From Minisyncoccota bacterium (GTDB taxonomy: Bacteria; Patescibacteriota; Minisyncoccia; Phycocordibacterales; Zambryskibacteraceae): 64,000 nt of DNA. Numbering within the stretch: the first letter of the stretch is position 1; the number at the start of each line of letters is the position of its first letter. Position numbers and translations under genes: made by a program. Below are positions 16,042 to 58,537 of this stretch, piece after piece. The stretch covers positions 15,338-79,337 of the forward strand of contig DATDVZ010000010.1 of assembly GCA_036517475.1 (NCBI GenBank), in the 5' to 3' direction. The notes beneath the pieces are model-generated. The model was not told where the DNA came from, did no database searches, and saw only the letters and a list, made by a program, of their open reading frames with translations.

Positions 16042-16043
16042 AT

Positions 16044-16115: not shown

Positions 16116-16157
16116 ACAGCTATATCATAACTTCAATTCTCCTAAATTTAAGGCTTA

Positions 16158-41769: not shown

Positions 41770-43400
41770 AATTTTTTAAAAAAACTCTTTGCTTGATTCT
41801 TGTAGTAAGTATTATACTTCCCTCTCTTTTATTTTCTCCAAAGAAAGTTTCAGCTTTTACACTTCCCCCCGGCTTAGTTCCCATTCCGGCAGATAAACTT
41901 CCGCCAGTACCAACATCTGATGCTAGTATAAGACAAAAAGAGGTCGGGATTACGATTTTTGGCATTACAATACCGGGAATTACCCTTGATTCCTTTATGA
42001 TAATTTTTGCAAAAATTCTCCTTTCAAGAATGGCTGATGCTACTGTGGATTGGATAAACCGCGGTTTTGACGGCTCACCAGTATATGCCACAGACCCGCA
42101 GGCATTTTTTCTTCAAACCGCAGACAATGTTGCTGGAGAATTTCTAAACAGTGCCGGCTGGGGAGCCCTATGCTCACCCTTCAGGCTTGAGGTCAATACG
42201 GCTCTGCGAAATATTTACTCATCTTCAAGAATCACTTCTCGCACGCCTTTCCAAGCCAGATGCCCGCTATCGCAAGTAGTAAATAATATTGATGCATTTC
42301 TTAATGGTGATTTCAGTCAAGGGGGGTGGGATGCCTGGTTTGCTATGACACAAAATGCTTATGGAAATCCTTTTGATGCAACTCTTAATGCTCAGGCCCA
42401 ACTTTCACTGAGGATAAACAACGAGAAAACAATTGAACTTGCGAAACTAAACTGGGCCGGGGGATTTCTTTCGTGGTCGGATTGTATTGAAAGGGAAGGT
42501 AATGACGATTCGGGCGGTCCTGATGGGGACCCAGCTACCTCTGACGGTGAATGTACAAAACGCGGACCGACAAAGACTCCCGGAAAAGTTATAGAAACCC
42601 AGCTTGAAAATGTTCTGGGTTCTGAGGTTAAACAACTGGAACTTGCTGATGAATTTGATGAGATGGTAAGCGCCCTTGTGGGACAACTGGTTAAAAAAAT
42701 ATTCACTTCCGCAGGCGGTCTTTTCTCCGGCGGAGGATCAAATCGCTACTCTGATGGAGGCAGACAGCAAGATACTGGGGGCAGTTGTTCTGCAAACAGA
42801 GATACTGCCGTAATTGGCGATGAAATAACTTGGACTGTTTCTGTTTTTGGAACGGATCCGGAAAATTCAACAATTCAATGGAGTGGTGATGAAGGATTAT
42901 CTGGCAACACAAATCAGGTTAAGAAAGTTTACACAATACCGGGAGTAAAATCCGCAAGTGTTGTCATAACTGATCCGGCCGGTAGAACTTCAACTGTTAC
43001 TTGCACTGATACAGTTGAAGTTTCCAGATACCCCGCTCTTGCCGGATCATGCAGGCCAAACAGATACTCTGCTGGTGCATTTATTATAACTTCTAGCGGA
43101 GATCCGGTAACTTGGTATGGCACATTTACCGGCGGCTCCGGAGTTTTGGATCAGGCAATCTTTAGTGATCAGTTTGAGGGGGATTCGGAGGGCGCCGCAA
43201 TCGTTCCTCCATCATCTCCGCCCCCAGGAATAACTTTCAATCCTCCAGTAGGGGGGGGTGTCAGAGGCGTTTACGCAACATTTCAATACAATAGAATTGG
43301 CGATCACAATGTAACACTGCGATTAATTGATACAGATCCGACGGTACGACCAGCCACAATTCAATGCACTGATTCCGTAACAGTCTTCCTCAAACCATGA
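41757..43400 (+). CDS. secreted protein with C-terminal PKD-like domain
   Basis: 547 aa, signal peptide, Cys-containing globular region, PKD-like GDEITWTVSVFGTDPENSTIQWSGDEG. Confidence 0.4.
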   Translation: MVTMKFFKKTLCLILVVSIILPSLLFSPKKVSAFTLPPGLVPIPADKLPPVPTSDASIRQKEVGITIFGITIPGITLDSFMIIFAKILLSRMADATVDWINRGFDGSPVYATDPQAFFLQTADNVAGEFLNSAGWGALCSPFRLEVNTALRNIYSSSRITSRTPFQARCPLSQVVNNIDAFLNGDFSQGGWDAWFAMTQNAYGNPFDATLNAQAQLSLRINNEKTIELAKLNWAGGFLSWSDCIEREGNDDSGGPDGDPATSDGECTKRGPTKTPGKVIETQLENVLGSEVKQLELADEFDEMVSALVGQLVKKIFTSAGGLFSGGGSNRYSDGGRQQDTGGSCSANRDTAVIGDEITWTVSVFGTDPENSTIQWSGDEGLSGNTNQVKKVYTIPGVKSASVVITDPAGRTSTVTCTDTVEVSRYPALAGSCRPNRYSAGAFIITSSGDPVTWYGTFTGGSGVLDQAIFSDQFEGDSEGAAIVPPSSPPPGITFNPPVGGGVRGVYATFQYNRIGDHNVTLRLIDTDPTVRPATIQCTDSVTVFLKP

Positions 43401-45583
43401 TTAGTTATTTTATTAAAAATGAAAAAATAGTCCGCTTAATAACAATAGGATTATTGGTTAGCGTTTCATTTATCGCTCCAATTCAAACTTATGCTGCCTG
43501 GTGGTTTATTCCAGCAGCAGTTGGAGGAGTGTTTGCAGCATTGGGTATTGCGAAGGGCACAATTGGTGAAGCGGTTGATTATGTGACTAGATTCGTTGGA
43601 AATTTGATTTTGGGAATAATGGGCGTTTTGCTTGGTATAGCCGGTCTTCTTATAAATCAGGTAATAAATTTTACGGTAGTTGAACTCAAGGAAAATATCG
43701 ACAAAATTGGCGGAATTAATACGGTTTGGGGAGTAATAAGAGATTTAATAAATATTTCATTCATTTTTGTTCTTCTTTACGGTGCAATAAAAACAATTCT
43801 TGGAGTAGGTGATGTCAAAGTCAAAAATTTGATTATTGGAGTAGTGATTTCTGCGATACTCATTAACTTCAGCATGTTTTTTACCAAGTTAATGGTGGAC
43901 GCATCAAATATCGTTGCTTTGGTTTTTTACGAAAAGATAGCGCCCCAAAGTCAAACACTTACAGGCGGCATATCAGACACTTTTATGGATAGACTGGGGT
44001 TGGTTTCACTTTATGACCCTGAAGAAGGAGTGCTTGAAGAGGTTGGCAAGACTTTTCTTAGGACATTATTGAGTTCAATAATATTGGTTATTGCGGCATT
44101 CACTTTCTTTGCCGGAGCAATTATGTTTTTAATCCGGTTTGTAAATATCATCTTGCTTATAATGCTCTCCCCTGTCGCTTTTCTTATAGGAATAAACATC
44201 CCTGCCATCAACGAACAAGCAAAATGGTGGTGGGGAATAATGAATAAAGAGCTGTTATGGGCACCTGTTTATATGATTTTAATGTGGATGGTTCTTACAG
44301 TAATTGGAACGGCAAATTATTTCGGATCTGAAGACTCAGGACTTAGTCTGTTAGTCAACTTTGGAATAGTAATAATCTTACTTAATGCGGTGCTTATAAT
44401 TTCCAGAAAACTTGCCGGTCAGGGTGGAACTATTGGAGCACAAGTAGTTGGAAAATTTGTTGGTGGTGTGGGTGGTTGGGCGGGCAGACAAGCAATCGGT
44501 CGCCCAATGCATAAAATCGGCCAGAGTAAATGGTTCAATAAAGCTGCTAGTAAAATGCCTTTGGTAGGTGCTGCAGCAATACGTGGTGTAAAGCAAGTCG
44601 GAGAAAAATCCACTTTTGATGTTCGTGCTGGAAAGACTTTTGGTGACTTGGGAGCAGGTACGCCAAAAGGTGGTGGGTTCAGAGAAAGACAAATGGCTGA
44701 TGAAAAAGAAATAATGGGAGCTAAAGAAAGAGTAAGGATCGCCGAAGCCAAAGAAAGCATCAAAAAGGGCACCCGAGCTGCTGAAGACCCGGCTTATGCT
44801 GCTGCATTAGCTACAACCGTTGGGGCAAGAACACTACAACAACAAGCTCTGGTTGACGCAGTTGACCAGATGGAAATAGCTATTGGGAAAATGACTGGTA
44901 AGGAAATTGAAACTATTGTCTATGAGAATAAAAAATTACTACAAAGTGAGGCGTTTGCAAACAAAATCAGCGTTCAGCAGTTAGATACCCTTAACAAAAG
45001 CGAGAAATTATCAGAGGCTGAGAAAAATATTCTTAAAGACGCTCGTTTTGGTGAGATTGCTAGAGCAATCAGAACAGGTCCCTTGGCAACAGGTTCAAAT
45101 GAAGAAAAGAGACTTAAGGCTCTCACTGATACAGAACTTGAAATGTTGCCTGCAGACTTATGGCAAACTCACGGTGCAAATTTTGCTAATAATCTTAAGC
45201 GATCACAGATCGACGACATTATGAAAAGTAAAGCCATCACTAGCTCACAAAAGAAAGCAATTACAGACAGTAGAAAAGCCGCTCAACTTAATAACATTGC
45301 AGTGGGTGTCCCGGCTGGTCCAGGCGTGCCAATGTTCCTTGCTCCCGGTGAATACGTTAAAAAAATGGACATAAAGGATATCGCTGGTTTAGATTTCTTC
45401 ACAGCTGGTGTGCCGAACCCCGCGCTTGATCCTATATATCAATACATTACCCCACAAATGATTAGAAAGATTGGTAGAGAACTTGAACCACAAAAAGCAC
45501 TTGAACTAAAAACTCAAATTATGGCACATGGAGATCCAGCAACAATAACATGGCTTAATAATCATCCTGATGCGCTCGGCTAA
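43397..45583 (+). CDS. polytopic membrane protein, VirB6/TrbL-like topology
   Basis: 728 aa, at least 6 TM in the first 350 aa, long hydrophilic C-terminal domain. Confidence 0.35.
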   Translation: MISYFIKNEKIVRLITIGLLVSVSFIAPIQTYAAWWFIPAAVGGVFAALGIAKGTIGEAVDYVTRFVGNLILGIMGVLLGIAGLLINQVINFTVVELKENIDKIGGINTVWGVIRDLINISFIFVLLYGAIKTILGVGDVKVKNLIIGVVISAILINFSMFFTKLMVDASNIVALVFYEKIAPQSQTLTGGISDTFMDRLGLVSLYDPEEGVLEEVGKTFLRTLLSSIILVIAAFTFFAGAIMFLIRFVNIILLIMLSPVAFLIGINIPAINEQAKWWWGIMNKELLWAPVYMILMWMVLTVIGTANYFGSEDSGLSLLVNFGIVIILLNAVLIISRKLAGQGGTIGAQVVGKFVGGVGGWAGRQAIGRPMHKIGQSKWFNKAASKMPLVGAAAIRGVKQVGEKSTFDVRAGKTFGDLGAGTPKGGGFRERQMADEKEIMGAKERVRIAEAKESIKKGTRAAEDPAYAAALATTVGARTLQQQALVDAVDQMEIAIGKMTGKEIETIVYENKKLLQSEAFANKISVQQLDTLNKSEKLSEAEKNILKDARFGEIARAIRTGPLATGSNEEKRLKALTDTELEMLPADLWQTHGANFANNLKRSQIDDIMKSKAITSSQKKAITDSRKAAQLNNIAVGVPAGPGVPMFLAPGEYVKKMDIKDIAGLDFFTAGVPNPALDPIYQYITPQMIRKIGRELEPQKALELKTQIMAHGDPATITWLNNHPDALG

Positions 45584-45585
45584 AT

Positions 45586-46335
45586 ATGACTTTCACACAA
45601 CAACAAAAAAAAACTGCCTACATTTCGCTTAACCCAAGTGTTCAGTATTTTATAACTGACCCGGAAAGCAGAGAAATTTCAGAGAAAATTTCAAAACAAT
45701 ACTCACTTGATTTTGATCAGACAGATAATCTTGATGAGGAGATAGACAATACAATTTTAGGCCTCCAAAGTTTTAGAGAAATGATTATTAATCTTAGACA
45801 AAAACTTGGATTATCGGACGATAAAATAATTGAACTTGCTCGTGATCTTAAACAACAAATCTTTGACAAGTTGGATGAAATTAAAAAAGGAGAAATACAA
45901 TATCAAATTCCGGAAACTTTTATTTCGACACCCACACAGTTGAAAGCGAAAATTAACCCACCAACAACCTACAACTCACAACCAACAACTTATAAAGAAC
46001 CCAATCAAACAAATACTAAGCAAAATGCTTTGGAAAGGATGGATGGAGTTTTTAATAAGACAGCGCCGGCGCCGGGGAATTTACCGAGTCAACCAACAAC
46101 CGACAACAAACAACAAACAACAAACTTTCAAATTCCGAAAACTAAAGTAGTGGAGGAATATCATCAGGAATTAAAACCACCAACAACTAACAACCAACAA
46201 CTTACAACAAATAATAGACAACCTAATCAACCTATACAAAAATCACCCATGGAGAGGAAATTGGAGCAAAATCCAAATGTTATGAAAAGTTCATATGGTA
46301 ATAAACCAGATCCTTATCGCGAGTCACCACAATGA
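45586..46335 (+). CDS. Gln/Asn/Thr-rich low-complexity protein
   Basis: 249 aa; contains QLTTNNRQPNQP. Confidence 0.35.
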   Translation: MTFTQQQKKTAYISLNPSVQYFITDPESREISEKISKQYSLDFDQTDNLDEEIDNTILGLQSFREMIINLRQKLGLSDDKIIELARDLKQQIFDKLDEIKKGEIQYQIPETFISTPTQLKAKINPPTTYNSQPTTYKEPNQTNTKQNALERMDGVFNKTAPAPGNLPSQPTTDNKQQTTNFQIPKTKVVEEYHQELKPPTTNNQQLTTNNRQPNQPIQKSPMERKLEQNPNVMKSSYGNKPDPYRESPQ

Positions 46336-46745
46336 TATTCAAATTTCCGCAATATATTGATGTTGAAGACAAAATTTTCGGGCCGCTTACTATAAAGCAG
46401 TTCATTTATCTTCTAGGTGGGGCTGGAATTATCGTCACCATTTTCAGATTCTTGCCGGGTTTTATAGCCTTTTTTCTTGCTATACCAATAATTGCCCTGT
46501 CGCTTTCGCTTGCGTTTTGGAGAGTCAATAATCAACCTTTTATAAGTGTATTGGAATCCTTTATGAAATATGTCTTTGGGGAAAAGCTCTATATATGGAA
46601 AAAAGAAGCAAAAAAAATATCAAAAAAAGAACAAGAATCTATTAATCCACAGGTTTATATTCCAAAAGTTACTGATGGAAACCTTAAAAACTTGAAATGG
46701 AACATTGACGTTAAAAAATCACAGGACATAGAACCTGAGACATAG
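46332..46745 (+). CDS. small 2-TM protein, VirB3-like
   Basis: 137 aa; GPLTIKQFIYLLGGAGIIVTIFRFLPGFIAFFLAIPIIAL. Confidence 0.35.
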   Translation: MIFKFPQYIDVEDKIFGPLTIKQFIYLLGGAGIIVTIFRFLPGFIAFFLAIPIIALSLSLAFWRVNNQPFISVLESFMKYVFGEKLYIWKKEAKKISKKEQESINPQVYIPKVTDGNLKNLKWNIDVKKSQDIEPET

Positions 46746-46824
46746 AACATGGAACATGGGGCATGAGGCATGGAACATAAAACATGGAGCGTAAAACATT
46801 AAACATATAACAAGGAATATGGAA
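46727..46824. repeat. heptamer array, 14 units (catagaa cctgaga catagaa catggaa catgggg catgagg catggaa cataaaa catggag cgtaaaa cattaaa catataa caaggaa tATGgaa)
   Basis: begins inside the last codons of the 46332 gene (TAG in catagaa) and ends with the ATG of the 46819 gene. Confidence 0.85.
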
Positions 46825-47169
46825 AAAAGTTACAATGAGAGGTTGAAAAAATTAATAAATCAGTATGTCCATAAAGTTTATGATTACAGCGTTAACTTTC
46901 CAAAGAATGAAGTATTTGGACTAACTTCTCAACTCAAACGCTCTGCAATGTCTGTCGCATTGAACTATGTCGAGGGATACGCCAGAAGAAGAAAGCTTGT
47001 TTTTAAAAATTTTATTGAAATTTCCTACGGCTCATTGAAAGAAAGTGTTTATTTAGTTGAATTCTCGTATAATAGAAAGTACCTGAATATAAACCAATAT
47101 AAGGAACTAAACAATTTAGCAGAAGAAGTAGCTAAAATGCTTTGGGGAATTATGGATAAGTTAGACTAA
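46819..47169 (+). CDS. four-helix-bundle protein (23S rRNA intervening-sequence protein family)
   Basis: 116 aa; FPKNEVFGLTSQLKRSAMSVALNYVEGYARR...ISYGSLKES. Confidence 0.6.
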   Translation: MEKSYNERLKKLINQYVHKVYDYSVNFPKNEVFGLTSQLKRSAMSVALNYVEGYARRRKLVFKNFIEISYGSLKESVYLVEFSYNRKYLNINQYKELNNLAEEVAKMLWGIMDKLD

Positions 47170-47203
47170 TGGTCTATGTTCTATGATAAATGATCTATGA
47201 CTT
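47169..47203. repeat. heptamer array, 5 units (atggtct atgttct atgataa atgatct ATGactt)
   Basis: the last unit is the start codon of the 47197 gene. Confidence 0.8.
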
Positions 47204-47832
47204 TAAACGCAAAAGCAACACAAGAGTTTGTTCCAATTGAAGAGGTGCGTGACGGCATTATTGTCATGAAAGACAGCGGAATGCGCGCTGTTCTTCTGTG
47301 TTCTTCTCTGAATTTTTCACTCAAATCAGATGATGAGCGAACAGCAACCCTTCTGCAATTTCAGGACTTTTTGAATTCTCTGGATTTTTCGATTCAAATT
47401 TATATTGAGTCCCGCCGGCTTGATATCAGGCCGTATCTTGCGCTGTTGGAGAACCAGAAAAAGAATCAGACAAACAGTCTGATGAAAATACAGATTCAGG
47501 AATATATTGAATTTGTTAAAAGTTTCACTGAACAAACAAATATAATGAAAAAAAGTTTTTATGTTGTCGTGCCGTTTTCTCCAGCGATAATAAGACAAAA
47601 AGGAAACATTCTTTCAAACATATTGCCGTCACAGAAACAAACAAGCGAGAAAGAGTCCGCAAACTTTGAGGAGAGTCGTACCCAAATTGAACAGCGTCTC
47701 TCGGTTGTTGAACAAGGACTCATGCGCTGCGGTATAAGAGTTGCCAGACTCGGTACAGAAGCAATAGTTGAATTGTTCTATAAAATATTTAATCCGGGGG
47801 AAAGCGAAAAACCGATTCAGTTGAAGACATAG
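47197..47832 (+). CDS. VirB4/TraC N-terminal-domain-like protein (N-terminal fragment of a split VirB4)
   Basis: 211 aa; FVPIEEVRDGIIVMKDSGMRAVLLCSSLNFSLKSDDE...RLGTEAIVELFYKIFNP. Confidence 0.5.
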   Translation: MTLNAKATQEFVPIEEVRDGIIVMKDSGMRAVLLCSSLNFSLKSDDERTATLLQFQDFLNSLDFSIQIYIESRRLDIRPYLALLENQKKNQTNSLMKIQIQEYIEFVKSFTEQTNIMKKSFYVVVPFSPAIIRQKGNILSNILPSQKQTSEKESANFEESRTQIEQRLSVVEQGLMRCGIRVARLGTEAIVELFYKIFNPGESEKPIQLKT

Positions 47833-47947
47833 AACATTAAACATGAAACATAGAATATTAGACATAGAACATAAAACACTTGAATTGAAAGTCCGAATTC
47901 AAAGCATGTTTCATGCTTCATGTTCCATGACTAATGATAAATGACCA
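47828..47947. repeat. inverted heptamer array: 8 units in catagaa phase, central gaattgaaagtccgaattc, then 6 units in atgttct phase ending in the ATG at 47941
   Basis: imperfect palindrome about 120 bp. The TAG stop of the upstream gene is inside the first unit. Confidence 0.85.
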
Positions 47948-49770
47948 CAATGGGAATATTTGATTTTTTAAAAAAGAAAAAAAGTGAAAATTCATTAGCG
48001 AGTATATCTATTCTGCCCCATGAAATTTATGAGGCAAATACTCTTGATTTAAAGGATATTATCGCTCCCAGCGCCCTTAAGGTCGGGCCAAAGGATATTA
48101 ACCTCGGCGAAAAGATAATGCGCTCTTTCTTTGTTATTTCCTATCCTTCTTCTTTGGGAGAAAGCTGGTTTGCGCCGATAATAAATTTGGACAGAGTTTT
48201 TGATGTTGCTATATTCGTCCACCCTATTGAAACTTCAAAAATTCTCAAGAAATTTCAAAAAAAAGTCGCAGAAGTCCAGAGTCAGATCCATGAAAGAGAA
48301 GAGAAGGGGCTTGTGCGCGATCCCATGCTTGATATTGCCTACCAAGACCTGGAAAATCTGCGGGATCAGCTGCAGCAAGCGCAAGAAAAACTATTTGACG
48401 TAGGATTATATATTTCAATTTACGCTGATAACGAAAATGAGCTGGATAAAATTGAATCTGAAATTAAGTCCATTCTTGAGTCCAAACTTGTCTATATCAA
48501 GCCGGCTCTTTTCCAGCAACAAGAAGCATTTAAAAGCATCCTGCCTATGGGAGATGATATTATTGCGGTAAATTCAAAACTTAACTCCTCCCCGCTTTCA
48601 TCACTTTTCCCTTTTATATCATTTGATCTTTCTACCGAGGAGGGAATTCTTTATGGCATTAACAGACATAACTCATCTCTTGTACTTTTTGACCGTTTTT
48701 CGCTTGAAAATTACAACTCAATAATTTTTGCAAAATCCGGTGCCGGCAAAAGCTATGCCACCAAGCTTGAAATCCTAAGGACACTAATGTTTGATACGGA
48801 AGTCATAGTAATTGACCCGGAAAGAGAATATGAATTCATGGCTGACGCCATCGGCGGAAGATATTTTAAAATTTCTCTGACCTCCGAACACCACATCAAC
48901 CCTTTTGATCTTCCGCCACCCGGACCGGATGAATCATTCGCCAATATTTTGCGCTCCAATATTATTAATCTTGTCGGACTCTTCCGCCTGATGATGGGGG
49001 GTCTCAGCGCCGAGGAAGATGCAATAATTGACAGGGCAATTACTGAAACTTACGCTCTCAAAGACATAACACCAGATTCGGATTTTACAAATATTGAACC
49101 TCCGCTTCTTACTGACTTTGAGCTAGTTCTATCTGGAATGGAGGGCGGAGCATCTTTGGCCCAGCGTCTTACAAAATACACAAAGGGTACGTGGGCCGGG
49201 TTTATAAACCGGCCGACAAATGTGGATATAAACAAGAAATTTGTTGTTTTTTCTTTGCGTGACATGGAAGACGAACTCAAGCCCATTGCAATGTATATCG
49301 TCACTCATTACATCTGGAGTGCTGTTAGAAAAGAACTTAAAAAAAGGCTTTTGGTTATTGACGAAGCTTGGTGGATGATGAAATCGGAAGATACCGCCTC
49401 ATTTGTGCTCAATATTGCAAAAAGGGGTAGAAAATATTTCTTAGGTCTTGCCACAATAACGCAGGATGTGGACGATTTCCTTGCCTCTCCCTACGGCACT
49501 CCTATCATTACCAATTCCTCAATTCAACTGCTCTTGAAACAGTCTCCGACAGCCATTGACCGCCTTCAGGGGGTTTTTAATCTGACTGATGAAGAAAAAT
49601 ATCTTTTACTTGAATCAAATGTTGGGGAAGGAATATTTTTTGCCGGGCTAAAGCACGTGGCGATAAAAATCGTTGCCTCTTATACCGAAGATCAGATTAT
49701 AACTTCCGATCCTGCCCAGATATTGGCAATACAAAAAGCAAAACAAGAACTCGAATCTGCTTCCGCGTAA
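47941..49770 (+). CDS. VirB4/TrbE/CagE-family T4SS ATPase (C-terminal ATPase part)
   Basis: 609 aa; Walker A SGAGKSYATK, Walker B LLVIDEAWWMM, RGRKYFLGLATITQ. Confidence 0.7.
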   Translation: MTTMGIFDFLKKKKSENSLASISILPHEIYEANTLDLKDIIAPSALKVGPKDINLGEKIMRSFFVISYPSSLGESWFAPIINLDRVFDVAIFVHPIETSKILKKFQKKVAEVQSQIHEREEKGLVRDPMLDIAYQDLENLRDQLQQAQEKLFDVGLYISIYADNENELDKIESEIKSILESKLVYIKPALFQQQEAFKSILPMGDDIIAVNSKLNSSPLSSLFPFISFDLSTEEGILYGINRHNSSLVLFDRFSLENYNSIIFAKSGAGKSYATKLEILRTLMFDTEVIVIDPEREYEFMADAIGGRYFKISLTSEHHINPFDLPPPGPDESFANILRSNIINLVGLFRLMMGGLSAEEDAIIDRAITETYALKDITPDSDFTNIEPPLLTDFELVLSGMEGGASLAQRLTKYTKGTWAGFINRPTNVDINKKFVVFSLRDMEDELKPIAMYIVTHYIWSAVRKELKKRLLVIDEAWWMMKSEDTASFVLNIAKRGRKYFLGLATITQDVDDFLASPYGTPIITNSSIQLLLKQSPTAIDRLQGVFNLTDEEKYLLLESNVGEGIFFAGLKHVAIKIVASYTEDQIITSDPAQILAIQKAKQELESASA

Positions 49771-49807
49771 TTTTTAATTTCAAATTAAAAATTATATAAT
49801 CAATTAA

Positions 49808-50536
49808 ATGAACCTTGATTCAGATATAAATGAAAATATAGGGAGAGGCCACTCTGCTCTCATCAGAAGTCCGGAAATTGACAGGCAGAGGGCAGAACAG
49901 AAAAAGCGCGCCGGACAAGTTCTTCAGAGTGCCGGTAAAGTCCTATCAAAAACGGGGGAAGGAGCAATAGTGGGAGTTCCAATGCAAGTTGCAGGAACAA
50001 TTTTAAGAAATAGAAACAATAAACAAAGAACGGGGGACGAGGAACAAGAAACAATTGGAACAACAGTGCCAAGTATTACAAGTGAATTTTCAAAGGATTC
50101 TAAAATTGTAAACGAATCGGCACAAAGATCGGAAAAAAGAAATAGAGTGACATTAACAACTACATATCTAATGTTTGGAACGGCTCTCTTTTTTGATTCC
50201 CTGCAATTTGTATTCAGTTTTGTGCCATTTCTTGGCTGGATATTGTCGGGCATCGTTGGTATTTTTGCCTGGTTAACTTTCTATACATGGACCTCAATAA
50301 AGGGCTGGGGCTGGTCAGATACTGTCAAAAAGATTGCAATTAATTGGGCATTGCCTTTGGTAGAAGTTTTTCCCATTATTAACGGCCTGCCACTGTGGAC
50401 ATTGCGAGTAGCAATACAAATTGCAATTATTAAAGCAGAAGATGTCCTATACAACAGTACTCAAGGAAAGGTGGATGTAAAAAATATACTCAATTTCAAA
50501 AGCAAGTATGGGGCAATCTTGAAACCTAGAACATAG
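49808..50536 (+). CDS. membrane protein (3-4 TM in the C-terminal half)
   Basis: 242 aa; stop TAG inside catagaa. Confidence 0.35.
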   Translation: MNLDSDINENIGRGHSALIRSPEIDRQRAEQKKRAGQVLQSAGKVLSKTGEGAIVGVPMQVAGTILRNRNNKQRTGDEEQETIGTTVPSITSEFSKDSKIVNESAQRSEKRNRVTLTTTYLMFGTALFFDSLQFVFSFVPFLGWILSGIVGIFAWLTFYTWTSIKGWGWSDTVKKIAINWALPLVEVFPIINGLPLWTLRVAIQIAIIKAEDVLYNSTQGKVDVKNILNFKSKYGAILKPRT

Positions 50537-50574
50537 AACATGCTTCATGCTCTATGTTTTATGTTCCATGATCA
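50525..50574. repeat. inverted heptamer array (cctagaa catagaa | atgcttc atgctct atgtttt atgttcc atgatca)
   Basis: seen directly. Confidence 0.8.
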
Positions 50575-50592
50575 ACAGGTTATAATTAAAAT

Positions 50593-51582
50593 ATGAGAAA
50601 AATTTTACTTCTTCTGACTGCATTTTTTTTAGTTAATGTCGGGATTATCTTTGCACAGATCAATATCAGCGACATTATCCCCAGTTTCAGTATAAAAATT
50701 TTTCCGGAAATCCCTGTTTCCGGAGACAAAATCAATATTTCAGTTGACAGTTTCTCGGGAATCAATATTGATTCTGCCTCCATTCGTTGGAGTATTAACA
50801 GCAAAATAGTTAAAGAGGGTGTTGGAGAAAAAAATTTCTCCTTTCAGGTAGGAGAATCAGGAAGTGAGACGGAGATCAGAGTGGATATCAACCCTCAAAA
50901 AGGACTGCCTTTTTCAAAAACAATTATTATTCGCCCTTCCGAAATTGATCTAGTATGGGAGGCAGATACATCAGTCCCCCTCCTTTACAGTGGAAAATCG
51001 CTTTTTTCCAGAGAAAGTCTCCTTAGATTTGAAGCTATTCCACATTTTGTTAGAAGAGATAAGACAGAAATCCCAAAAGAATCTTTAATTTATGAATGGA
51101 GAGCAAATAACAAGCTTTACCCAAATTCTTCAGGATATGGAAAAAACTTCTTTTCAATTTCCGGATCGCAATTTGAACAGGTTGAAACAATTGAGGTCAC
51201 GGCTCGTTCAACAGATGGGGGGTTTATTGCAAAGAAATTCGTAACAGTTGAACCTGTTTCTCCGGAAGTTTTAATTTATGAGAACAATCCGCTTCAGGGA
51301 ATACTTTATAATAGAGATGTCGGCTCACAATACAAGCTTTCAAATCAGGAAATCACCTTTAGAGCCGCCCCTTATTATTTTTCCACAAAGGATATCTTCT
51401 CATTTACATTTGACTGGCTTATAAACGGAGCAAAAGTAAGTGCTCCAGAAAAAGACGAGATGACATTAAGAGTGGAAGATGACTCTGCCGGATCATCACG
51501 AATATCAATTCAGGTCAAAAATCCAAAAAAAATTTTCCAGAATTCTAAAAAGGAATTCCTAATAAATTATGGCAATAACTAA
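50593..51582 (+). CDS. secreted beta-rich protein
   Basis: 329 aa, signal peptide. Confidence 0.35.
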   Translation: MRKILLLLTAFFLVNVGIIFAQINISDIIPSFSIKIFPEIPVSGDKINISVDSFSGINIDSASIRWSINSKIVKEGVGEKNFSFQVGESGSETEIRVDINPQKGLPFSKTIIIRPSEIDLVWEADTSVPLLYSGKSLFSRESLLRFEAIPHFVRRDKTEIPKESLIYEWRANNKLYPNSSGYGKNFFSISGSQFEQVETIEVTARSTDGGFIAKKFVTVEPVSPEVLIYENNPLQGILYNRDVGSQYKLSNQEITFRAAPYYFSTKDIFSFTFDWLINGAKVSAPEKDEMTLRVEDDSAGSSRISIQVKNPKKIFQNSKKEFLINYGNN

Positions 51583-52708
51583 CTCACAACTTACAACCAA
51601 CAACCGACAACCAAAATTGCTTTTGATTTTATTTTTATTTCTCTTCCTTTTTCCTTTTTCCTTTGTCAGCGCTGAAATACCACAGTCTGCCAGAGGTAAG
51701 CAATGTTTTGTTTTTGGATATGGCGGAGCAGCAAGTCTTTTCCCCTGTGAAAATCCACCAGCACAAGTGGTCGGCAGAGACTGTGTTGTTTGTGGTAACC
51801 CATCAAATGGTCAGTGTCCAACGCCAATTTCTACAACAAACGGAGGTGGGACAACATTCATATGCGAAGTAGGAACTGCTACTCCACCACCAAACAATCC
51901 TCCACCAACAAGTCTAGGATATATTCCATTGGCCCCACTTCCAGGTGATACACCAGGTCAACCTATAAAAGTTACTGACTATATTCCGAAGGTTTTTAGA
52001 CTTGCCATTGCTGTAGCAGGAGCACTGGCAGTAATTATGATTACAATCGGCGGAATTGAATACATTACTTCCGAAACTATTAACGGCAAAAAGGACGGCA
52101 AAGAAAAAATAACAAACGCTCTGGTTGGACTTCTTTTGGCAATCGGTTCCTGGATTATTTTAAATACGATTGCTCCCGACAGATTCACCCAATTTGATTT
52201 GAGTACGATAAGAACACCGCCACAAATTACAACCGCAACAACCACACCACCATCGCCTGGAAGCTGGCCGAGTGATCAGGGCGTCAGACAAAGGCTTGGG
52301 CTTAGCGGAATATCCATTAATAATAGTAACTGCACTTATATTGGACAGGTCGGATGCACTAGCGTCTATGGATTGAGAGAGAATATTATAAGTGGTCTTG
52401 AGCAGTTAGTGCGGGATTGTTTCGGCCAGTGCAATATCGTAATAACCGGCGGCACTGAATGGTGGCTGCACGGTAACAGAATTGATATCAATTCTACCCA
52501 GCATCGACCAGGTGGAAATGCTGTTGATTTGTCAAAAAATGATTCAGTATTAAATAACTTCATCATGCGTTTCCCGAAGATAGGTTCAGCAACTGGCGGA
52601 AACGGCTGCGCTACAGGCCAAGGATACAATGTTGGCGGAAAAATTTATGTTGATGAGATAAGTTCAGGGGCAAGCACCGGTCCTCATTGGCATATATGTT
52701 TTCCATAA
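51569..52708 (+). CDS. fusion: VirB2/TrbC-like two-helix membrane hairpin plus C-terminal peptidase M15-like (VanY/L-Ala-D-Glu peptidase-type) domain
   Basis: 379 aa; Cys-rich secreted N-region, FRLAIAVAGALAVIMITIGGIEYITS...ALVGLLLAIGSWIILNTI, then STQHRPGGNAVD (SxHxxGxAxD) and GPHWH. Confidence 0.45.
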   Translation: MAITNSQLTTNNRQPKLLLILFLFLFLFPFSFVSAEIPQSARGKQCFVFGYGGAASLFPCENPPAQVVGRDCVVCGNPSNGQCPTPISTTNGGGTTFICEVGTATPPPNNPPPTSLGYIPLAPLPGDTPGQPIKVTDYIPKVFRLAIAVAGALAVIMITIGGIEYITSETINGKKDGKEKITNALVGLLLAIGSWIILNTIAPDRFTQFDLSTIRTPPQITTATTTPPSPGSWPSDQGVRQRLGLSGISINNSNCTYIGQVGCTSVYGLRENIISGLEQLVRDCFGQCNIVITGGTEWWLHGNRIDINSTQHRPGGNAVDLSKNDSVLNNFIMRFPKIGSATGGNGCATGQGYNVGGKIYVDEISSGASTGPHWHICFP

Positions 52709-53976
52709 AAATGAAAATATTTAAAAACAAAAAAAATATTTACATCAGTTTAGGTATTGTCGCAATTCTTATAATCGTATTTGCCTCATTTTTTATTTTT
52801 TCTGGAAAATCAACTCCCTCTCAAAATCAAATAGACACCAATGCACCCTTTGGCACAGGAGGAGGTGATACTTCTTTTCCCACTGAAGTTAGTGGCGAGG
52901 GTTTTGAAAACACATCGCCAGTAAATCCACCAACAGGCTTGTCTATGTGGAAAATCTCTGAAATTCCAGTTACAGGAGCGGGGATTTTTGGTACAGGAAC
53001 CAGCACAACTATAAAGTTTGTTGAGAAAGCTACGGGACATGTGTACAAATACGATCCTGTTTCTGGAGTTAAAGAAAGAATTTCAAACACAACTATCCCA
53101 AAAACTTCAAAAATTGTCTGGGGAAAGGGCGGTGATTCTTTATTATTTCAATATGAAGAAAACGGCTCTATTAAAACCTATTACGCCCAAATTGCCACAA
53201 GCTCTGCCACCTCAACCCCTTCTGGGGATCAGGGATTAGTTAATGGATTTTTCTTTGAAGATAATATTAATAATTTAGTCACTTCGCCCAGTGGAAACAA
53301 AATTTTTTACACGCTTTCCGGAGGAAGCATTTTTAACTTCATAATTTCAGAATTTAATGGATCCAAACCTCTGAAAATCTATTCATCACGGCTTAAGGGG
53401 TGGCAAAATTCATTCCCGAATGAAAATTCTGTGTCAATTACTTCTAGTCCTTCATATGCGGCAGAAGGATACTCATATCTTATAAATTTAAAAAGTGGGT
53501 TGGTAGAAAAAACTATCGGCGGCAAAATTGGATTAACAACCCTTTATTCAAGCAGTACAAAGGGTGTTTTATATTCAAAGAGTGTGAACAATAGTTTCAC
53601 ATCATTTCTACTCAACAGGGAAAATAAAATCGATTTAGAAACAAACATATCAACCCTTCCGGAGAAATGTGTTTGGGGAGAAAAAAATTCTTCATTTATT
53701 TACTGCGGTGTTCCTAAAAATATCCCGGCTGGCACTTACCCCGATGATTGGTATAAAGGCAAGATATCGTTCTCCGATAATGTTTGGATCTATGATACTA
53801 ATACCAGTGCAACAGAATCAGTTATTGATCCGTTGAAAAGCGTTGGAGAGGATATTGACATGGTTGAACCGAAGTTGAGCAAAGATGAAACACTGCTAAT
53901 AATCAGAAACAAAAAAGATTCCTCTCTCTGGGCGCTGAAGCTTGATCCAAAGAGAATTATTGAGTATGTGGATTAG
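52687..53976 (+). CDS. membrane-anchored secreted protein (beta-rich, possibly propeller-like)
   Basis: 429 aa, N-terminal TM. Confidence 0.35.
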   Translation: MAYMFSIKMKIFKNKKNIYISLGIVAILIIVFASFFIFSGKSTPSQNQIDTNAPFGTGGGDTSFPTEVSGEGFENTSPVNPPTGLSMWKISEIPVTGAGIFGTGTSTTIKFVEKATGHVYKYDPVSGVKERISNTTIPKTSKIVWGKGGDSLLFQYEENGSIKTYYAQIATSSATSTPSGDQGLVNGFFFEDNINNLVTSPSGNKIFYTLSGGSIFNFIISEFNGSKPLKIYSSRLKGWQNSFPNENSVSITSSPSYAAEGYSYLINLKSGLVEKTIGGKIGLTTLYSSSTKGVLYSKSVNNSFTSFLLNRENKIDLETNISTLPEKCVWGEKNSSFIYCGVPKNIPAGTYPDDWYKGKISFSDNVWIYDTNTSATESVIDPLKSVGEDIDMVEPKLSKDETLLIIRNKKDSSLWALKLDPKRIIEYVD

Positions 53977-54078: not shown

Positions 54079-54792
54079 CTACACTTTGAATTTTCTTCTG
54101 ATGAGTTTTTCCTGCACTAACGTAAAAATATTGCTTGTAAACCAATATAGAGCCACCACTCCTGAAATACTATAGGAAATAAAAAGGACAATCACAGGAA
54201 AAAAATATCTCATTTGGATATTCATACTTCTGGCCAGATCACTCTGAAAACTGCGTTTGCCGTCTGTGGATATTGGCGGGGCGGAAACCCGCATCTGGAA
54301 AAAGCTCGATACACCAGCAGCAATAGCAAGTATCCAGCTCTTGCCAGTGATATCAATAAATCCGAGAAAGTTCATGTTAATTTTTTCTGGCAAAGGAATA
54401 AATGAATATTTAAGTGTCTCATCAACAGCCGGTAGACCAGATTTTAAAAATATAAAATAGAGAGCAAAAATTATCGGAAGTTGTATGAGAATGGGTAAAA
54501 TACTTCCAAAGGGGCTGACTTTTTTATTTTTATACAATTCCCATGTTCTCTTAGCTTGTTCCTGCTTGTCAGTTTTATATTTTTCTCTAATTTTGGTGAG
54601 CTCAGGCTCAATCTTTTTCATTTCAATTCCTGCAACTGTAGCTTTGCGTGATAAGGGAAAAAGTATGAATTTCACAATAAGAGTAAAGAATATGATAGCG
54701 AAACCAGCATCCAACCAAGGAAAAGTATGTATAAAGAGAATAAGGCCATTATATAGAGGCTGATAGAAGACATCATGGAAAATAGATTTCAT
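54079..54792 (-). CDS. yidC: membrane protein insertase YidC (short form)
   Basis: 237 aa; LFPLSRKATVAGIEMKKIEPELTKI...PILIQLPIIFALY. Confidence 0.85.
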   Translation of the reverse strand: MKSIFHDVFYQPLYNGLILFIHTFPWLDAGFAIIFFTLIVKFILFPLSRKATVAGIEMKKIEPELTKIREKYKTDKQEQAKRTWELYKNKKVSPFGSILPILIQLPIIFALYFIFLKSGLPAVDETLKYSFIPLPEKINMNFLGFIDITGKSWILAIAAGVSSFFQMRVSAPPISTDGKRSFQSDLARSMNIQMRYFFPVIVLFISYSISGVVALYWFTSNIFTLVQEKLIRRKFKV

Positions 54793-54872: not shown

Positions 54873-55202
54873 TTATATCAGACCGCTTTTGCTAAGAAGA
54901 CTCTCTATATCATCATACAAATCTTCTTTAGATATATTACCCAACCTGGATTTAAAATAAAATGCTAACAAAAAACCATCGGTGATTTTTTTCAGAAAAC
55001 TTTTTATCTGCCCGTAACCCCTTCTTCTGAGACGGTTGCGGTCAGCTGCATTCTTTGCAACTTTTTTTGAAACAATAAAAGTAACTTTTGAATTTCCACT
55101 GGCGCGAGACACTTTCAATGACAAAAAATTCCCGCTGAAAGTTTTTCCACGTGACAAAAGATCGAAATCACTTCTCTTTATCCTTCTGTTCTTTGGAAGC
55201 AT
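54873..55202 (-). CDS. rnpA: ribonuclease P protein component
   Basis: 109 aa; Arg/Lys-rich, RNR-like motif. Confidence 0.85.
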   Translation of the reverse strand: MLPKNRRIKRSDFDLLSRGKTFSGNFLSLKVSRASGNSKVTFIVSKKVAKNAADRNRLRRRGYGQIKSFLKKITDGFLLAFYFKSRLGNISKEDLYDDIESLLSKSGLI

Positions 55203-55251: not shown

Positions 55252-55386
55252 TTAAACAGAAATTAACTTTCTGCCTTTTTGCCTTCGTCTCTTTAGTGTT
55301 CGTCGTCCGCCTGAGGATTTTTTTCTTTTAATAAACCCGTGAGCTCGGCTTCTTTTTCTTTTTTTTGGTTGATATGTACGAGACAT
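55252..55386 (-). CDS. rpmH: 50S ribosomal protein L34 (44 aa; not in the ORF track)
   Basis: [44 protein letters not shown]; classic rpmH-rnpA-yidC order. Confidence 0.85.
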
Positions 55387-55388
55387 AG

Positions 55389-55433
55389 AACTAACATAAT
55401 AACAAACAACTTATAACTTACAACTAGTAACTG
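55389..55433 (-). repeat. heptamer array 5' of rpmH on the minus strand (cagttac tagttgt aagttat aagttgt ttgttat tatgtta gttct-ATG)
   Basis: AGTT/TGTT core at 7-nt spacing. Confidence 0.5.
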
Positions 55434-55624
55434 AATTTCTTAAAAAAGTTTGCTTATTTGCCTAAATTTTTATTGATAAAAATTCAAACAGGTCAAGTTA
55501 TGATGTCCACTTTTTTTCCACTGTTTATCAACATAAAACATGCTTTTTTTCAAGTTTTTTAATATTTGGAGAAGTATATACTACGGGTACTATAACCCTG
55601 TTAATTTCATTCTTTTACTAAAAC

Positions 55625-56974
55625 ATGCCAGATCACAAAGAACTATGGAACTCCGTCCTGGTAGAAATGGAATTAAGTGTTTCCAAACCCAACTTTAACA
55701 CCTGGTTTAAAGACACCAATATCGTCCGACATGACGATAACACGGTTTATCTGGCTGTTCCTAACGCTTTTGTGAAAGAGTGGCTCCATAATAAATACCA
55801 CAACACAATATTGCGCCATATCCGTTCCATTGTGCCCTCCGTCCATTCAGTGGAATACATTATTACAAGGGAAGATGGTAAAAAAACCGAAACAAGGAGG
55901 GAAGAGATGTTGATTGCGCCCGTCCAAGAACTTCCTCTAAGCGATTATTACATCAACAAGGAGGATAATCTGAACCCCAGATACACATTTGAAAGTTTTA
56001 TAGTGGGTCCGTTCAATGAATTGGCACACGCTGCTTCCCAAGCTGTAATAAAAAAGCCGGGATTAACATATAACCCTCTTTTCATTTACGGAAATACGGG
56101 TCATGGCAAAACTCACCTCATACAGGCAGTTGGAAACCATATTAAAAACTTGTATAAGGATAAAAAAGTGATCTATGTTACCTCCGAAAAATTCGCTTCT
56201 GATGTGATAGGTGGAATTCAGAGCGGAAAAATTGCCCAAATCAAAGAAAAGTACAGAAAATATGATGTTTTAATCATGGATGACATCCAGTTTCTCTCCA
56301 GAACGGAAAAGACTCAGGAGGAGCTATTTCACCTCTTCAATACTCTTTTTGACAACAACAAACAAATTGTATTTTCTTCTGACAAACACCCCAATCTCAT
56401 ACCGGGAATAGAGGACCGCCTTAAAGGTAGATTTTCTGCAGGAATGACTGTAGATATTCCCGCCCCAGATCAGGATTCGCGAGCGGCAATAATAAAAGCC
56501 AAAACAACACAGAATAATTTCTCGCTTTCACAGGAAGTAATTGATTTTCTTGCTTTAAGTATTATTGGAAATATACGTGATCTGGAGGGGGTAATTAATC
56601 TCATAATCTGCCAGTCCCAACTTAAAGGTAGGGAACTCAGCCTCAATGAGGTCAAAAACACCATAAAGGCAAGCGCCAAACCAAAGAAGTCAGTGTCCAT
56701 TAAGGAGGTTGTTAAAATGGTCGCAGATTACTATAGAATCGAGGAAAACAACATTTACGAAAAAACCAGAAGAAAGGAAATAATAAAACCAAGACAAGTT
56801 GCTATGTATATATTAAGGGAGGATTTTAATATTTCTTACCCATCGATTGGACAGAAGTTGGGTGGTAGGGATCATACAACCGTAATTCACTCTTGTGAAA
56901 AAATCAAATCAGAAGTAAAAGATGATCAGATGCTGGCTCAAGAGATTGCACAACTACGTTCAATGATTGTTTAA
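55625..56974 (+). CDS. dnaA: chromosomal replication initiator DnaA
   Basis: 449 aa; AAA+ (GNTGHGKTHL), C-terminal DNA-binding domain. Confidence 0.95.
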   Translation: MPDHKELWNSVLVEMELSVSKPNFNTWFKDTNIVRHDDNTVYLAVPNAFVKEWLHNKYHNTILRHIRSIVPSVHSVEYIITREDGKKTETRREEMLIAPVQELPLSDYYINKEDNLNPRYTFESFIVGPFNELAHAASQAVIKKPGLTYNPLFIYGNTGHGKTHLIQAVGNHIKNLYKDKKVIYVTSEKFASDVIGGIQSGKIAQIKEKYRKYDVLIMDDIQFLSRTEKTQEELFHLFNTLFDNNKQIVFSSDKHPNLIPGIEDRLKGRFSAGMTVDIPAPDQDSRAAIIKAKTTQNNFSLSQEVIDFLALSIIGNIRDLEGVINLIICQSQLKGRELSLNEVKNTIKASAKPKKSVSIKEVVKMVADYYRIEENNIYEKTRRKEIIKPRQVAMYILREDFNISYPSIGQKLGGRDHTTVIHSCEKIKSEVKDDQMLAQEIAQLRSMIV

Positions 56975-57184
56975 AAGGTGTTGAATATTAAACTGATACT
57001 CTGTTGAAAATTACTAACAAAAAACCGATTTTAAAAATCAATGGGAAATTATTAACAATCAAAATTAATAGTAAACAGTTTATTAGTTTTGGTGGTGTTT
57101 GAATTGTGTTGTTATAAAACAATAAATATCATTTATCCACAAATCCACACAACTAAAAGTAGTAATAGTATTTATTTATAGAAA
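56975..57184 (+). promoter_or_regulatory. candidate oriC / DUE in the dnaA-dnaN spacer with DnaA boxes
   Basis: perfect TTATCCACA at 57133-57141, AAATCCACA at 57142-57150, very AT-rich flank. A further 1-mismatch box TTATCAACA lies at 55525-55533 upstream of dnaA. Confidence 0.55.
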
Positions 57185-58282
57185 ATGCATATTGAAACTA
57201 TAAAAGAAAAGTTACTTGATGCGGTATATAAAGCGGAAAAAATTACCGGTAGAAATATGGCCTTACAAATACTTTCAAATCTTGCAATTGAGGTATCTGG
57301 TTCTCAATTTAAAATAAAAGCTACAAATTTAGATCTTGGTTTGGAAATAATTGTGCCAGTTAAAGTAAAATCTCCCGGTAAAATCACAGTTTCTGCATTA
57401 ATACTTTCAAATTTTTTAGCAAACCTTCCAGTTGAGACAAAAATTGATATTCAAAGCAAGGAAAATGATGTTTTTATTCATACATCAAAAACCTCAACAA
57501 AAATTAAAAACCAGAATTTTTCCGATTTCCCCCTAATTCCAAAACTTGAAGGAAAGAAGTTTAAAATCGAGGCAAACTCAATTGTGAAAGGTTTAAAATC
57601 TGTTGTTTTCTCTGCTGCAACCTCATCAATAAAACCCGAGCTCTCAAGTATTAATATTTACCATGATGGTGAAAGTTTGGTTTTTGTTGCGACAGACTCA
57701 TTCCGACTCGCTGAAAAAAGAATCAAGACTACAAAAGCCAAGGAAATTAGCCAAATTTTAATACCTTTTAAAAATACCACTGATATTATTAGAATATTAG
57801 AGTCTGTTAATGGTGAATTAGATTTAACAATTTCCCAGAATCAAATATCGTTTAAAACTGATGAAATCTATCTGGTTTCAAGAGTTATTGAAGGGAATTT
57901 TCCAGATTATAAACAAATAATACCAAAAGAGACTAAAACTGAGGTTACTCTTTTGAAAGCTGACCTTCTTTCCGCACTTAAATTATCAAACGTTTTTTCT
58001 GACAGTTTCAATCAGGTTGTACTGAAAGTGATCCCAGATGAAAAATTATTTGAACTTACTACTAAAAATTCAGATGTTGGGGAAAATCACTATACACTTG
58101 ATTCTGTAATGAAAGGTGATGAAATTACTCTCGGTTTTAACCATAAATACATCGCCGACTGCCTTAACTCAATTGATTCTGACAGTATAACTCTTTCATT
58201 TGTTGGTCCGGGCAAACCCGTAATGATCAAGGGTGTTTCAGATAAGTCATTTTTATATATAGTAATGCCAATGAATAGATGA
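57185..58282 (+). CDS. dnaN: DNA polymerase III beta sliding clamp
   Basis: 365 aa, three-domain clamp, dnaA-dnaN order. Confidence 0.9.
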   Translation: MHIETIKEKLLDAVYKAEKITGRNMALQILSNLAIEVSGSQFKIKATNLDLGLEIIVPVKVKSPGKITVSALILSNFLANLPVETKIDIQSKENDVFIHTSKTSTKIKNQNFSDFPLIPKLEGKKFKIEANSIVKGLKSVVFSAATSSIKPELSSINIYHDGESLVFVATDSFRLAEKRIKTTKAKEISQILIPFKNTTDIIRILESVNGELDLTISQNQISFKTDEIYLVSRVIEGNFPDYKQIIPKETKTEVTLLKADLLSALKLSNVFSDSFNQVVLKVIPDEKLFELTTKNSDVGENHYTLDSVMKGDEITLGFNHKYIADCLNSIDSDSITLSFVGPGKPVMIKGVSDKSFLYIVMPMNR

Positions 58283-58537
58283 GTGATGAAGGATATAAGT
58301 GAATATTTAAAAAAGTTCAGGAGAATTATTTCTTCAGGAGATGAGGAGCGGGAAATAATATCAAAAGAAATTTCAGGAAAAGTAAATATAAAAATAATGC
58401 CAGCTGAAATTGATTTTCATGGCGGAATAGTTTATTTAAGTGTAAAACCAGCAGTCAGAAGCGAAATTTATATTAACAAAACAGAAATCATTAATGAATT
58501 ATTAAGGAAAGGATTAAATGTGAGTGACCTAAGGTAG
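58283..58537 (+). CDS. DUF721-like (DciA-like) small protein
   Basis: 84 aa, position immediately after dnaN, IVYLSVKPAVRSEIYINKTEII pattern. Confidence 0.35.
   Translation: MMKDISEYLKKFRRIISSGDEEREIISKEISGKVNIKIMPAEIDFHGGIVYLSVKPAVRSEIYINKTEIINELLRKGLNVSDLR

Follow-up and report, generated by a model that had tools for sequence, protein, structure and literature searches.

A candidate chromosomal origin with a BUS-type unwinding element beside dnaA in a Paceibacteria genome

The chromosomal origin of Bacillus subtilis is embedded in the gene context rpmH–dnaA–dnaN, with DnaA boxes on both sides of dnaA, and its basal unwinding system (BUS), situated in incC between dnaA and dnaN, comprises DnaA-boxes 6 and 7, a GC cluster, six DnaA-trios and an AT-rich 27-mer (Richardson 2016, 2019; Pelliciari 2021, 2023). 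The rules formulated for a BUS are a DnaA box, usually present as a tandem pair, a spacer of at most 16 nt between the best box and the first trio (with a peak at 10–13 nt), at least three trios with a central adenine, and AT-rich DNA beyond them. A tandem co-oriented second box is the commonest arrangement, accounting for 57% of predicted BUS, and the strand that carries the trios has its 5' end directed away from the boxes. The origins of Helicobacter pylori and Clostridioides difficile are bipartite, with oriC1 upstream and oriC2 downstream of dnaA, and carry the trios and the unwinding element in the downstream part. Here we describe the dnaA region within a 64,000-nt stretch of contig DATDVZ010000010.1 (the whole of which is called the window, all positions being given in its numbering), from a genome of the Paceibacteria (Parcubacteria, candidate phyla radiation, CPR). 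We propose, with a probability of about 0.78, that this locus is the chromosomal oriC of that genome, with a dnaA-flanking layout resembling those of B. subtilis and H. pylori and a BUS-type element in the dnaA–dnaN spacer. A literature search on CPR origins and the BUS retrieved no paper combining these topics, and the accessible part of the BUS survey table has no CPR genome among its entries.

The element in the dnaA–dnaN spacer

The initiator gene dnaA (55625–56974, plus strand, 449 aa) encodes domains I, III (AAA+) and IV, as judged from matches to Pfam PF11638, PF00308 and PF08299 (DnaA_N, Bac_DnaA and Bac_DnaA_C), and it is followed on the same strand by dnaN (57185–58282), whose product contains all three domains of the beta sliding clamp (PF00712, PF02767 and PF02768). 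The 210-bp spacer between them (56975–57184) has an A+T content of 77%, compared with about 62% for the window. A first-pass annotation of this DNA, made from the sequence alone, had described the spacer as very AT-rich and had placed in it a perfect DnaA box directly followed by a second one; the composition is as described, and the perfect box, TTATCCACA (57133–57141, plus strand), is indeed present and is the sole perfect copy in the window. The second box, AAATCCACA (57141–57149, plus strand, two mismatches), is present as well, but it shares one base with the first, the two being offset by 8 nt. They are the equivalents of B. subtilis DnaA-boxes 6 and 7, respectively.

Beyond box 2, a 3-nt gap, CAA (57150–57152), leads to a predicted DnaA-trio array at 57153–57170, which would provide the single-stranded DNA (ssDNA) track for the DnaA oligomer on the minus strand (3'-GAT TTT CAT CAT TAT CAT-5'; CTA AAA GTA GTA ATA GTA on the plus strand). 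The whole element thus reads TTATCCACAAATCCACA-CAA-CTA AAA GTA GTA ATA GTA-TTTATTTATAG, and the plus strand from box 1 to the clamp gene reads TTATCCACA-AATCCACA-CAA-CTA AAA GTA GTA ATA GTA-TTTATTTATAGAAA-ATG(dnaN). Box 1 and the first trio are separated by 11 nt (57142–57152), within the BUS limit of 16 nt and inside the 10–13 nt peak. On the bound strand, the series of central adenines comprises GAT, is broken by TTT, and then continues through six consecutive trios, CAT CAT TAT CAT AAA TAA, which start 9 nt from box 2. A nearest-neighbour stability scan assigned the putative AT-rich DNA unwinding element to 57154–57204, a segment that starts at the trios and extends over the first codon of dnaN. 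Within the spacer, stability is lowest in the 30- and 50-bp stretches 57154–57184 and 57154–57204 (−50.8 kcal/mol per 50 steps; z=2.7, the 99.9th percentile within the window), which begin exactly at the trios and run into the start of dnaN.

The tandem, rather than the single box, sets this site apart from chance. A perfect TTATCCACA is expected 0.52 times in the window and occurs at least once in 42 of 100 shuffled sequences, whereas the tandem 17-mer TTATCCACAAATCCACA, allowing up to three mismatches, has three matches in the window against 0.31 expected, a number reached in none of the 100 shuffles; the copy at 57133 is exact. When a box with at most two mismatches was required to be followed by a gap of 2–4 nt and by at least five NTA triplets out of six, the site at 57141 was the only one found on either strand of the window.

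Comparison with B. subtilis supports the assignment of strand and register. As listed in the oligonucleotide supplement of Pelliciari et al. (2021), the B. subtilis element consists of ACTTATCCACAAATCCACAGGCCC and then TACTATTACTTCTACTA, so that the strand carrying 5'-TTATCCACA-3' reads 5'-CTA-3' repeats downstream; by the same comparison, the triplets of the window stand in the correct register and polarity, and the 17-mer corresponds to B. subtilis boxes 6 and 7, with which it is letter-identical (BUS scaffold oligonucleotide oHM778). In both systems the strand complementary to 5'-TTATCCACA-3' carries the trios, AT-rich DNA comes immediately after them, and box 1 stands at a similar distance from the first trio (12 nt in B. 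subtilis, 11 nt in the window). The polarity of the trios, which run 3' to 5' from the boxes on the minus strand, agrees with both the B. subtilis oligonucleotides and the C. difficile trio sequence. An alternative set of trios on the plus strand, TAA TAG TAG TAA TAG, which would form perfect 3'-GAT/AAT-5' units, was rejected because its polarity is opposite to that of the experimental system and no inverted box lies downstream.

The differences from B. subtilis concern the gap, the trios, the number of boxes and the position of the melting site. B. subtilis reads TTATCCACAAATCCACA-GGCC-CTA CTA TTA CTT CTA CTA, with GGCC where the window has CAA (NNC in the family of relatives described below), and its trios are GAT GAT AAT GAA GAT GAT, as against GAT TTT CAT CAT TAT CAT in the window and GAT TAT CAT YAT TAT in the family. 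It possesses seven boxes in incC in addition to the incA and incB clusters, whereas the window has one consensus box and a few degenerate ones. Unlike in B. subtilis, the predicted unwinding region of the window overlaps the dnaN start codon, and no loaders of the DnaD, DnaB or DnaI type are evident, a DciA-like open reading frame (ORF) being found instead.

Escherichia coli oriC is a more distant parallel. Read together with entry NC_000913 of the BUS table, its R1/right 13-mer region has, on the equivalent strand, TTATCCACA, a spacer and CTA ATA. Its first two trios are therefore 3'-GAT TAT-5', matching the family consensus. The E. coli origin differs in having a single proximal box, a 10-nt spacer, arrays of low-affinity sites, and IHF and Fis sites, and in not lying beside dnaA.

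The rest of the spacer contains only degenerate boxes. A box scan detected TTATTAACA (57049–57057, plus strand, two mismatches), a variant common in relatives, and a tentative inverted box, TTTTCAACA (57002–57010, minus strand, two mismatches), lies in the distal part of the spacer, where the TTTTCAACA region has a 12-nt direct-repeat partner at 56979–56990. Many relatives have a stronger cluster of two or three boxes about 105–125 nt upstream of dnaN. The relaxed motif TWTNMACA is concentrated only locally, near the 3' end of dnaA and in the spacer.

The initiator itself is closely related to the B. subtilis DnaA of the BUS cryo-electron microscopy structure (8BTG; E=7.6e-104). The box-reading motif GGRDHTTVIH is intact, and the ssDNA-binding isoleucine is kept, I190 of B. 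subtilis corresponding to I195 in the window protein. N187 and K222 are replaced by S192 and T227, so that not every residue essential in B. subtilis is retained. The first of these replacements concerns the trios directly, since B. subtilis Asn187, which is Ser192 here, hydrogen-bonds the central trio adenine. Among the scorable relatives, Gln is the commonest residue at the Asn187-equivalent position. E. coli DnaA has Gln there too.

On this basis, initiation could proceed as follows. DnaA-ATP would use its domain IV to bind the co-oriented box pair at 57133–57149, and an AAA+ oligomer would grow from this anchor along the minus strand in the 3'-to-5' direction, leaving the boxes behind, each protomer engaging one 3'-NAT-5' trio within 57153–57170. 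Stretching of this strand would melt the adjacent AT-rich DNA at 57154–57204, overlapping the start of dnaN, and the replicative helicase would then be loaded, possibly with the aid of the DciA-like product of the ORF after dnaN.

Conservation in relatives and the two spacers flanking dnaA

Two sets of relatives were compared with the window: one genome per species, for which 80 were returned (Paceibacteria/Parcubacteria including Zambryskibacteria and Taylorbacteria, with DnaA identities of 61–76%), and 80 relatives from metagenomes. The first-pass annotation had recognised the gene order rpmH–rnpA–yidC next to dnaA–dnaN and an unannotated 44-aa rpmH, and Pfam searches corroborated all five genes. 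The three genes on the minus strand are yidC (54079–54792; membrane insertase, PF02096, E=9.6e-45), the outermost member of the conserved origin-proximal block, rnpA (54873–55202; RNase P protein, PF00825, E=2.6e-13) and rpmH (55252–55386; ribosomal protein L34, PF00468, E=1.5e-16), the last matching positions 1–44 of the 44-position profile. Calling rpmH unannotated was a fair remark, since the gene calls of the source record have a wrong-frame 34-aa ORF at this position (L081 18065–18169; the true rpmH is L081 18076–18210). By tblastn, 76 of the 80 genome relatives have dnaN downstream of dnaA, 77 have rpmH upstream of it and 78 have a yidC match placed and oriented as in the window, and the order yidC–rnpA–rpmH/dnaA–dnaN was kept wherever the genes were detected. 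rpmH was likewise found at dnaA in 73 of 74 metagenome relatives. Nearly every relative with flanking sequence has dnaA placed between rpmH and dnaN. An Rfam scan returned tRNAs only, with no RNA element in either of the spacers flanking dnaA.

To assess the conservation of the element, we searched 75 genome and 70 metagenome dnaA–dnaN spacers for a strict BUS pattern, defined as a box with at most two mismatches, a gap of 2–4 nt and at least four NTA triplets out of five. The pattern occurred on the dnaN-ward strand in 34 of the 75 genome and 25 of the 70 metagenome spacers (59/145), and on the opposite strand in none of either set (0/75 and 0/70; 0/145). In shuffled spacers, a mean of 0.17 loci out of 75 matched, and the density of the pattern was about 1.8 per kb in the spacers as compared with 0.012 per kb in the rest of the loci. 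The family consensus of the spacer is TTATCCAn-(T/A)TATCCACA, a 3-nt gap ending in C, and CTA ATA GTA (A/G)TA ATA, followed by T-rich and A-rich DNA; box 2 ends about 35–55 nt before the dnaN start. Tandem boxes are most often offset by 8 nt, as in 31 of the 76 best pairs. As a control for circularity, the alignment was re-anchored on the tandem boxes alone in 31 loci, which yielded NNC CTA ATA GTA RTA ATA, with a period-3 signal of T at 0.81–0.90 and A at 0.58–0.87 and with C, A, G, A/G and A as the successive first bases of the triplets. The relatives thus have five uninterrupted trios directly after the gap, and the element is conserved among them in position, strand and sequence. The earlier placement of an origin region here, with the unwinding site downstream of dnaA, is therefore supported by a complete BUS-type element that is conserved in relatives and matches that of B. 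subtilis.

In the other spacer, the same annotation had seen only a box with one mismatch. That box, TTATCAACA (55525–55533), exists, but it is not alone: it closes a conserved array of three degenerate boxes on the plus strand (55503–55533), arranged head to tail with starts 11 nt apart, of which the other two are ATGTCCACT (55503) and TTTTCCACT (55514). Most relatives have two or three boxes with 2-nt gaps, then TTTTTAACAAGT, and then TATATAAT close to the dnaA start. Aligned with this family-wide TTTTTAACAAGT...TATATAAT pair, the window carries TTTTTTTCAAGT (55544–55555), 10 nt beyond the box array, and TATATACT (55575–55582) on the plus strand, and we infer that this pair is a candidate dnaA promoter. 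A generic scan of the window for sigma-70 promoters and terminators gave no excess over chance (16 sigma-70 matches found, 15.0 expected). TATATAAT lies only about 5–12 nt before the dnaA ATG in most relatives, which suggests a leaderless or very-short-leader dnaA mRNA in them; TATATACT of the window is 42 nt upstream of the ATG.

The simplest reading of the upstream array is that it is probably an autoregulatory operator at the dnaA promoter. Its three boxes, phased at 11 nt, would most likely autoregulate dnaA, and they may also supply distal DnaA that aids the downstream element; by analogy with B. subtilis, the array may represent the distal box cluster of a bipartite origin. The H. pylori and C. 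difficile origins likewise have boxes on both sides of dnaA and their trios and unwinding element downstream. Unlike theirs, the upstream cluster of the window consists of just three degenerate boxes, which overlap the dnaA promoter region.

It is very unlikely, in our estimate, that the origin lies at this locus but unwinds in the rpmH–dnaA spacer, the boxes between dnaA and dnaN being merely auxiliary. The upstream spacer is 75% AT, its least stable windows reach the 98.5th percentile (30 and 50 bp) and the 99.3rd percentile (100 bp), its phased box array is conserved, and formal matches to the strict BUS pattern occur in it in 13 of 75 relatives. All 13 matches, however, are artefacts in which the box array reads itself as triplets (for example, TTATACACAtaTTATTAACA), so that no second unwinding element is indicated. 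The window moreover has no NTA run after the last upstream box, and the array is followed by promoter-like motifs rather than by the least stable DNA.

The boxes on both sides of dnaA might instead be operators only, by which DnaA controls transcription of its own gene and of dnaN, while replication starts elsewhere, as it does in E. coli, with oriC 42 kb away from dnaA. The upstream array directly against promoter-like motifs would suit such a role, as would the distance of just 14–35 nt between the downstream element and the dnaN start, the lack of a detectable skew inversion at the site in the 73 kb covered by the composition analysis below, and the occurrence of tandem boxes at 15872–15900, which shows that such tandems exist outside the locus. 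An operator, on the other hand, has no need of five successive NTA triplets in a specific strand and register, at a constant distance of 3 nt, with the least stable DNA behind them. This architecture, which 59 of 145 relatives show on a single strand, is the one that defines unwinding elements, and the tandem at 15872 has no trios. We therefore regard a purely regulatory function as improbable, and the proposal of an origin with its unwinding site downstream of dnaA as the better account of the element.

Trio sequence, strand composition and gene orientation

Several observations weigh against an origin at this site, and the first group concerns the element itself. The second trio on the bound strand, TTT, has no central adenine. 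Trios 3–6 begin with a pyrimidine (CAT or TAT), the preference in B. subtilis being for G or A, with capture of the dinucleotide 3'-GA-5'. The gap CAA is not GC-rich. The whole region has one consensus box only, and the relaxed motif TWTNMACA shows no enrichment across the window (68 found, 68.6 expected).

The divergence of the trios is systematic. Those of the family differ from the B. subtilis type in that the trios beyond the initial GAT open with a pyrimidine (TAT, CAT). Set beside the stringent consensus 3'-[G/A]A[T/A]-5', the first trio alone is GAT, the others being CAT or TAT in both the window and the family consensus. Pyrimidine-first trios are nevertheless within the known range, because E. 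coli has TAT as its third listed trio in the BUS table, and they could still reflect a somewhat different preference.

The second group of observations comes from strand composition, which was analysed over about 73 kb, consisting of the window and about 9.5 kb to its right on a 157,665-bp scaffold (ANAN16-1_SAMN03842431 scaffold_193). Raw GC skew in the window has no minimum at dnaA–dnaN; it is governed by gene orientation and is uninformative. Skew at third codon positions (GC3) on the left arm, from 10 to 55 kb, is as expected for leftward forks and fits an origin to its right. The 16 kb to the right of the site show no reversal of GC3 skew, and over the 73 kb a model with no switch is better than one with a switch at 57.15 kb (delta log-likelihood, logL, 3.65). 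At 4-fold degenerate sites, plus-strand genes have values of about −0.19 and minus-strand genes of −0.02 to −0.06 on both sides, the counts on the right arm being small. As a separate observation, the best single GC3 switch lies at about 9.5 kb (1–9500 versus 9500–64000), with a terminus-like sign and a delta logL of 2.9 from few genes, and is probably noise.

The relatives give a mixed picture. In their non-core flanking genes, GC3 skew is −0.064 for plus-strand and +0.080 for minus-strand genes on the left, and +0.128 and −0.133, respectively, on the right, a reversal across the locus such as an origin predicts. At 4-fold sites, the asymmetry is confined to the right arm (left, −0.140 for plus and −0.143 for minus; right, −0.029 and −0.195), on a strong coding-strand baseline of about −0.13. 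In view of this baseline and the right-arm-only asymmetry, the family GC3 pattern is not taken as a clean origin signature. Gene identity is, in addition, confounded with gene orientation in these comparisons because synteny is conserved. GC skew had been put forward in the first-pass annotation as the check on its origin assignment. Over the 73 kb to which this check was applied, no inversion appears at the site, and the skew neither confirms nor refutes the origin, which is the main reason why our confidence is not higher.

Gene orientation is the third point. Genes on both sides of the core of five to six genes point toward the site, head-on to forks departing from it, and this arrangement is conserved: in the flanks of relatives, genes pointing toward the core outnumber those pointing away by 135 to 18 on the left and by 70 to 7 on the right. 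In the window, the 38 kb from 16195 to 53976 hold mostly plus-strand genes, head-on to a fork leaving the proposed origin.

Taken at face value, some of these observations would fit one of two other explanations, which we jointly consider unlikely. Either the BUS between dnaA and dnaN is inactive as an origin in this genome, as could be suggested by a strand asymmetry that does not change sign across it within the 73 kb, or the DnaA of Paceibacteria reads a shifted trio code, 3'-YAT-5'. The latter, if true, would mean an invariant A-T with a pyrimidine in place of the G/A of B. subtilis, and would go together with Ser or Gln at the Asn187 position.

The proposal of an active BUS-type origin in the dnaA–dnaN spacer is based on motif architecture and conservation, and not on skew. 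If correct, it describes an ordinary dnaA-linked origin using the known BUS device, now specified to the base. It would provide a concrete, testable origin model for the Paceibacteria, a large uncultured lineage with reduced genomes, in terms of boxes, trio register, bound strand and melting site. It would also add to the evidence for the box-plus-trio unwinding system as an ancestral bacterial trait. In practical terms, such an origin could serve as an anchor for orienting and closing these genomes and for estimating replication rates from metagenome coverage. The current understanding of replication initiation is left unchanged.

The wider neighbourhood

Directly after dnaN, a conserved 84-aa ORF with a GTG start (58283–58537, plus strand) overlaps the 3' end of the convergent penicillin-binding protein (PBP) gene by 9 nt. 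Of the 71 relatives in which one could be extracted, nearly all have a similar ORF after dnaN, and 8 of 33 orthologs match the DciA family PF05258 weakly, at E values of up to 1 (best E=4.9e-4). The window ORF itself had no significant Pfam match, a profile search against PDB sequences found nothing, and a single-sequence structure model was unusable (predicted local distance difference test, pLDDT, 43). It is possible, from the matches of its orthologs, that this ORF encodes a divergent DciA, the helicase operator.

To the left of yidC lies a cluster resembling a type IV secretion system (T4SS) (40816–53976, plus strand), which includes a VirB4/TraC-like ATPase (47941–49770; PF19044, E=1.9e-26) and a T4SS pilin-like protein (51569–52708, plus strand; PF18895, E=1.1e-6). 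The segment 47197–47832 is possibly a split N-terminal piece of the ATPase. This block had been viewed as an accessory cluster at an unusual location, a view that the relatives contradict. Of the 80 genome relatives, 69 carry a homolog of the yidC-adjacent gene at the corresponding position, and 51 likewise carry one of the pilin-like gene. In the 10-kb flanks, the shared order on the left has the plus-strand genes g211, virB4, (g242), g329, g379 and g429 convergent with the minus-strand genes yidC, rnpA and rpmH, and on the right dnaA and dnaN (plus) are followed by PBP (minus), tyrS (plus), and ruvC, yebC, ruvB and T2SSE (minus). VirB4 identity in these flanks (73–86%) exceeds that of DnaA (62–72%). 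Because of this conserved synteny, the T4SS-like cluster is a lineage-typical neighbour and not a recent insertion.

A second cluster of DnaA boxes is found far from dnaA, at 15872–15900 on the plus strand, between the gene for tRNA-Gly(tcc) (15970–16042, minus strand) and a UPF0102/YraN-like gene (15371–15754, minus strand). It consists of TTATACACA and ATATCCACA at an 8-nt tandem offset, with TTATCCCCA 12 nt further on, and no trios follow the boxes. The cluster may be a DnaA-regulated promoter or a DnaA-titrating site. That it is instead the true origin is highly improbable. Three boxes with at most one mismatch within 29 nt, two of them in tandem, would suit an origin, as would the local change in raw GC skew at about 14–17 kb and the divergence of gene orientation, with minus-strand genes and tRNAs on the left and 38 kb of plus-strand genes on the right. 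The site, however, lacks trios and is not beside dnaA; for GC3, a model without a switch outperforms one with a switch at 16.15 kb (delta logL −6.45 for the switch), whose fitted sign resembles that of a terminus rather than an origin, and the change in raw skew tracks gene orientation.

Around this cluster, the minus strand from 13806 to 16116 carries six tRNA genes among small ORFs (Gly-GCC, Pro-GGG, Pro-TGG, Pro-CGG, Gly-TCC and Arg-TCG), so that all three proline isoacceptor tRNAs are encoded within 800 nt.

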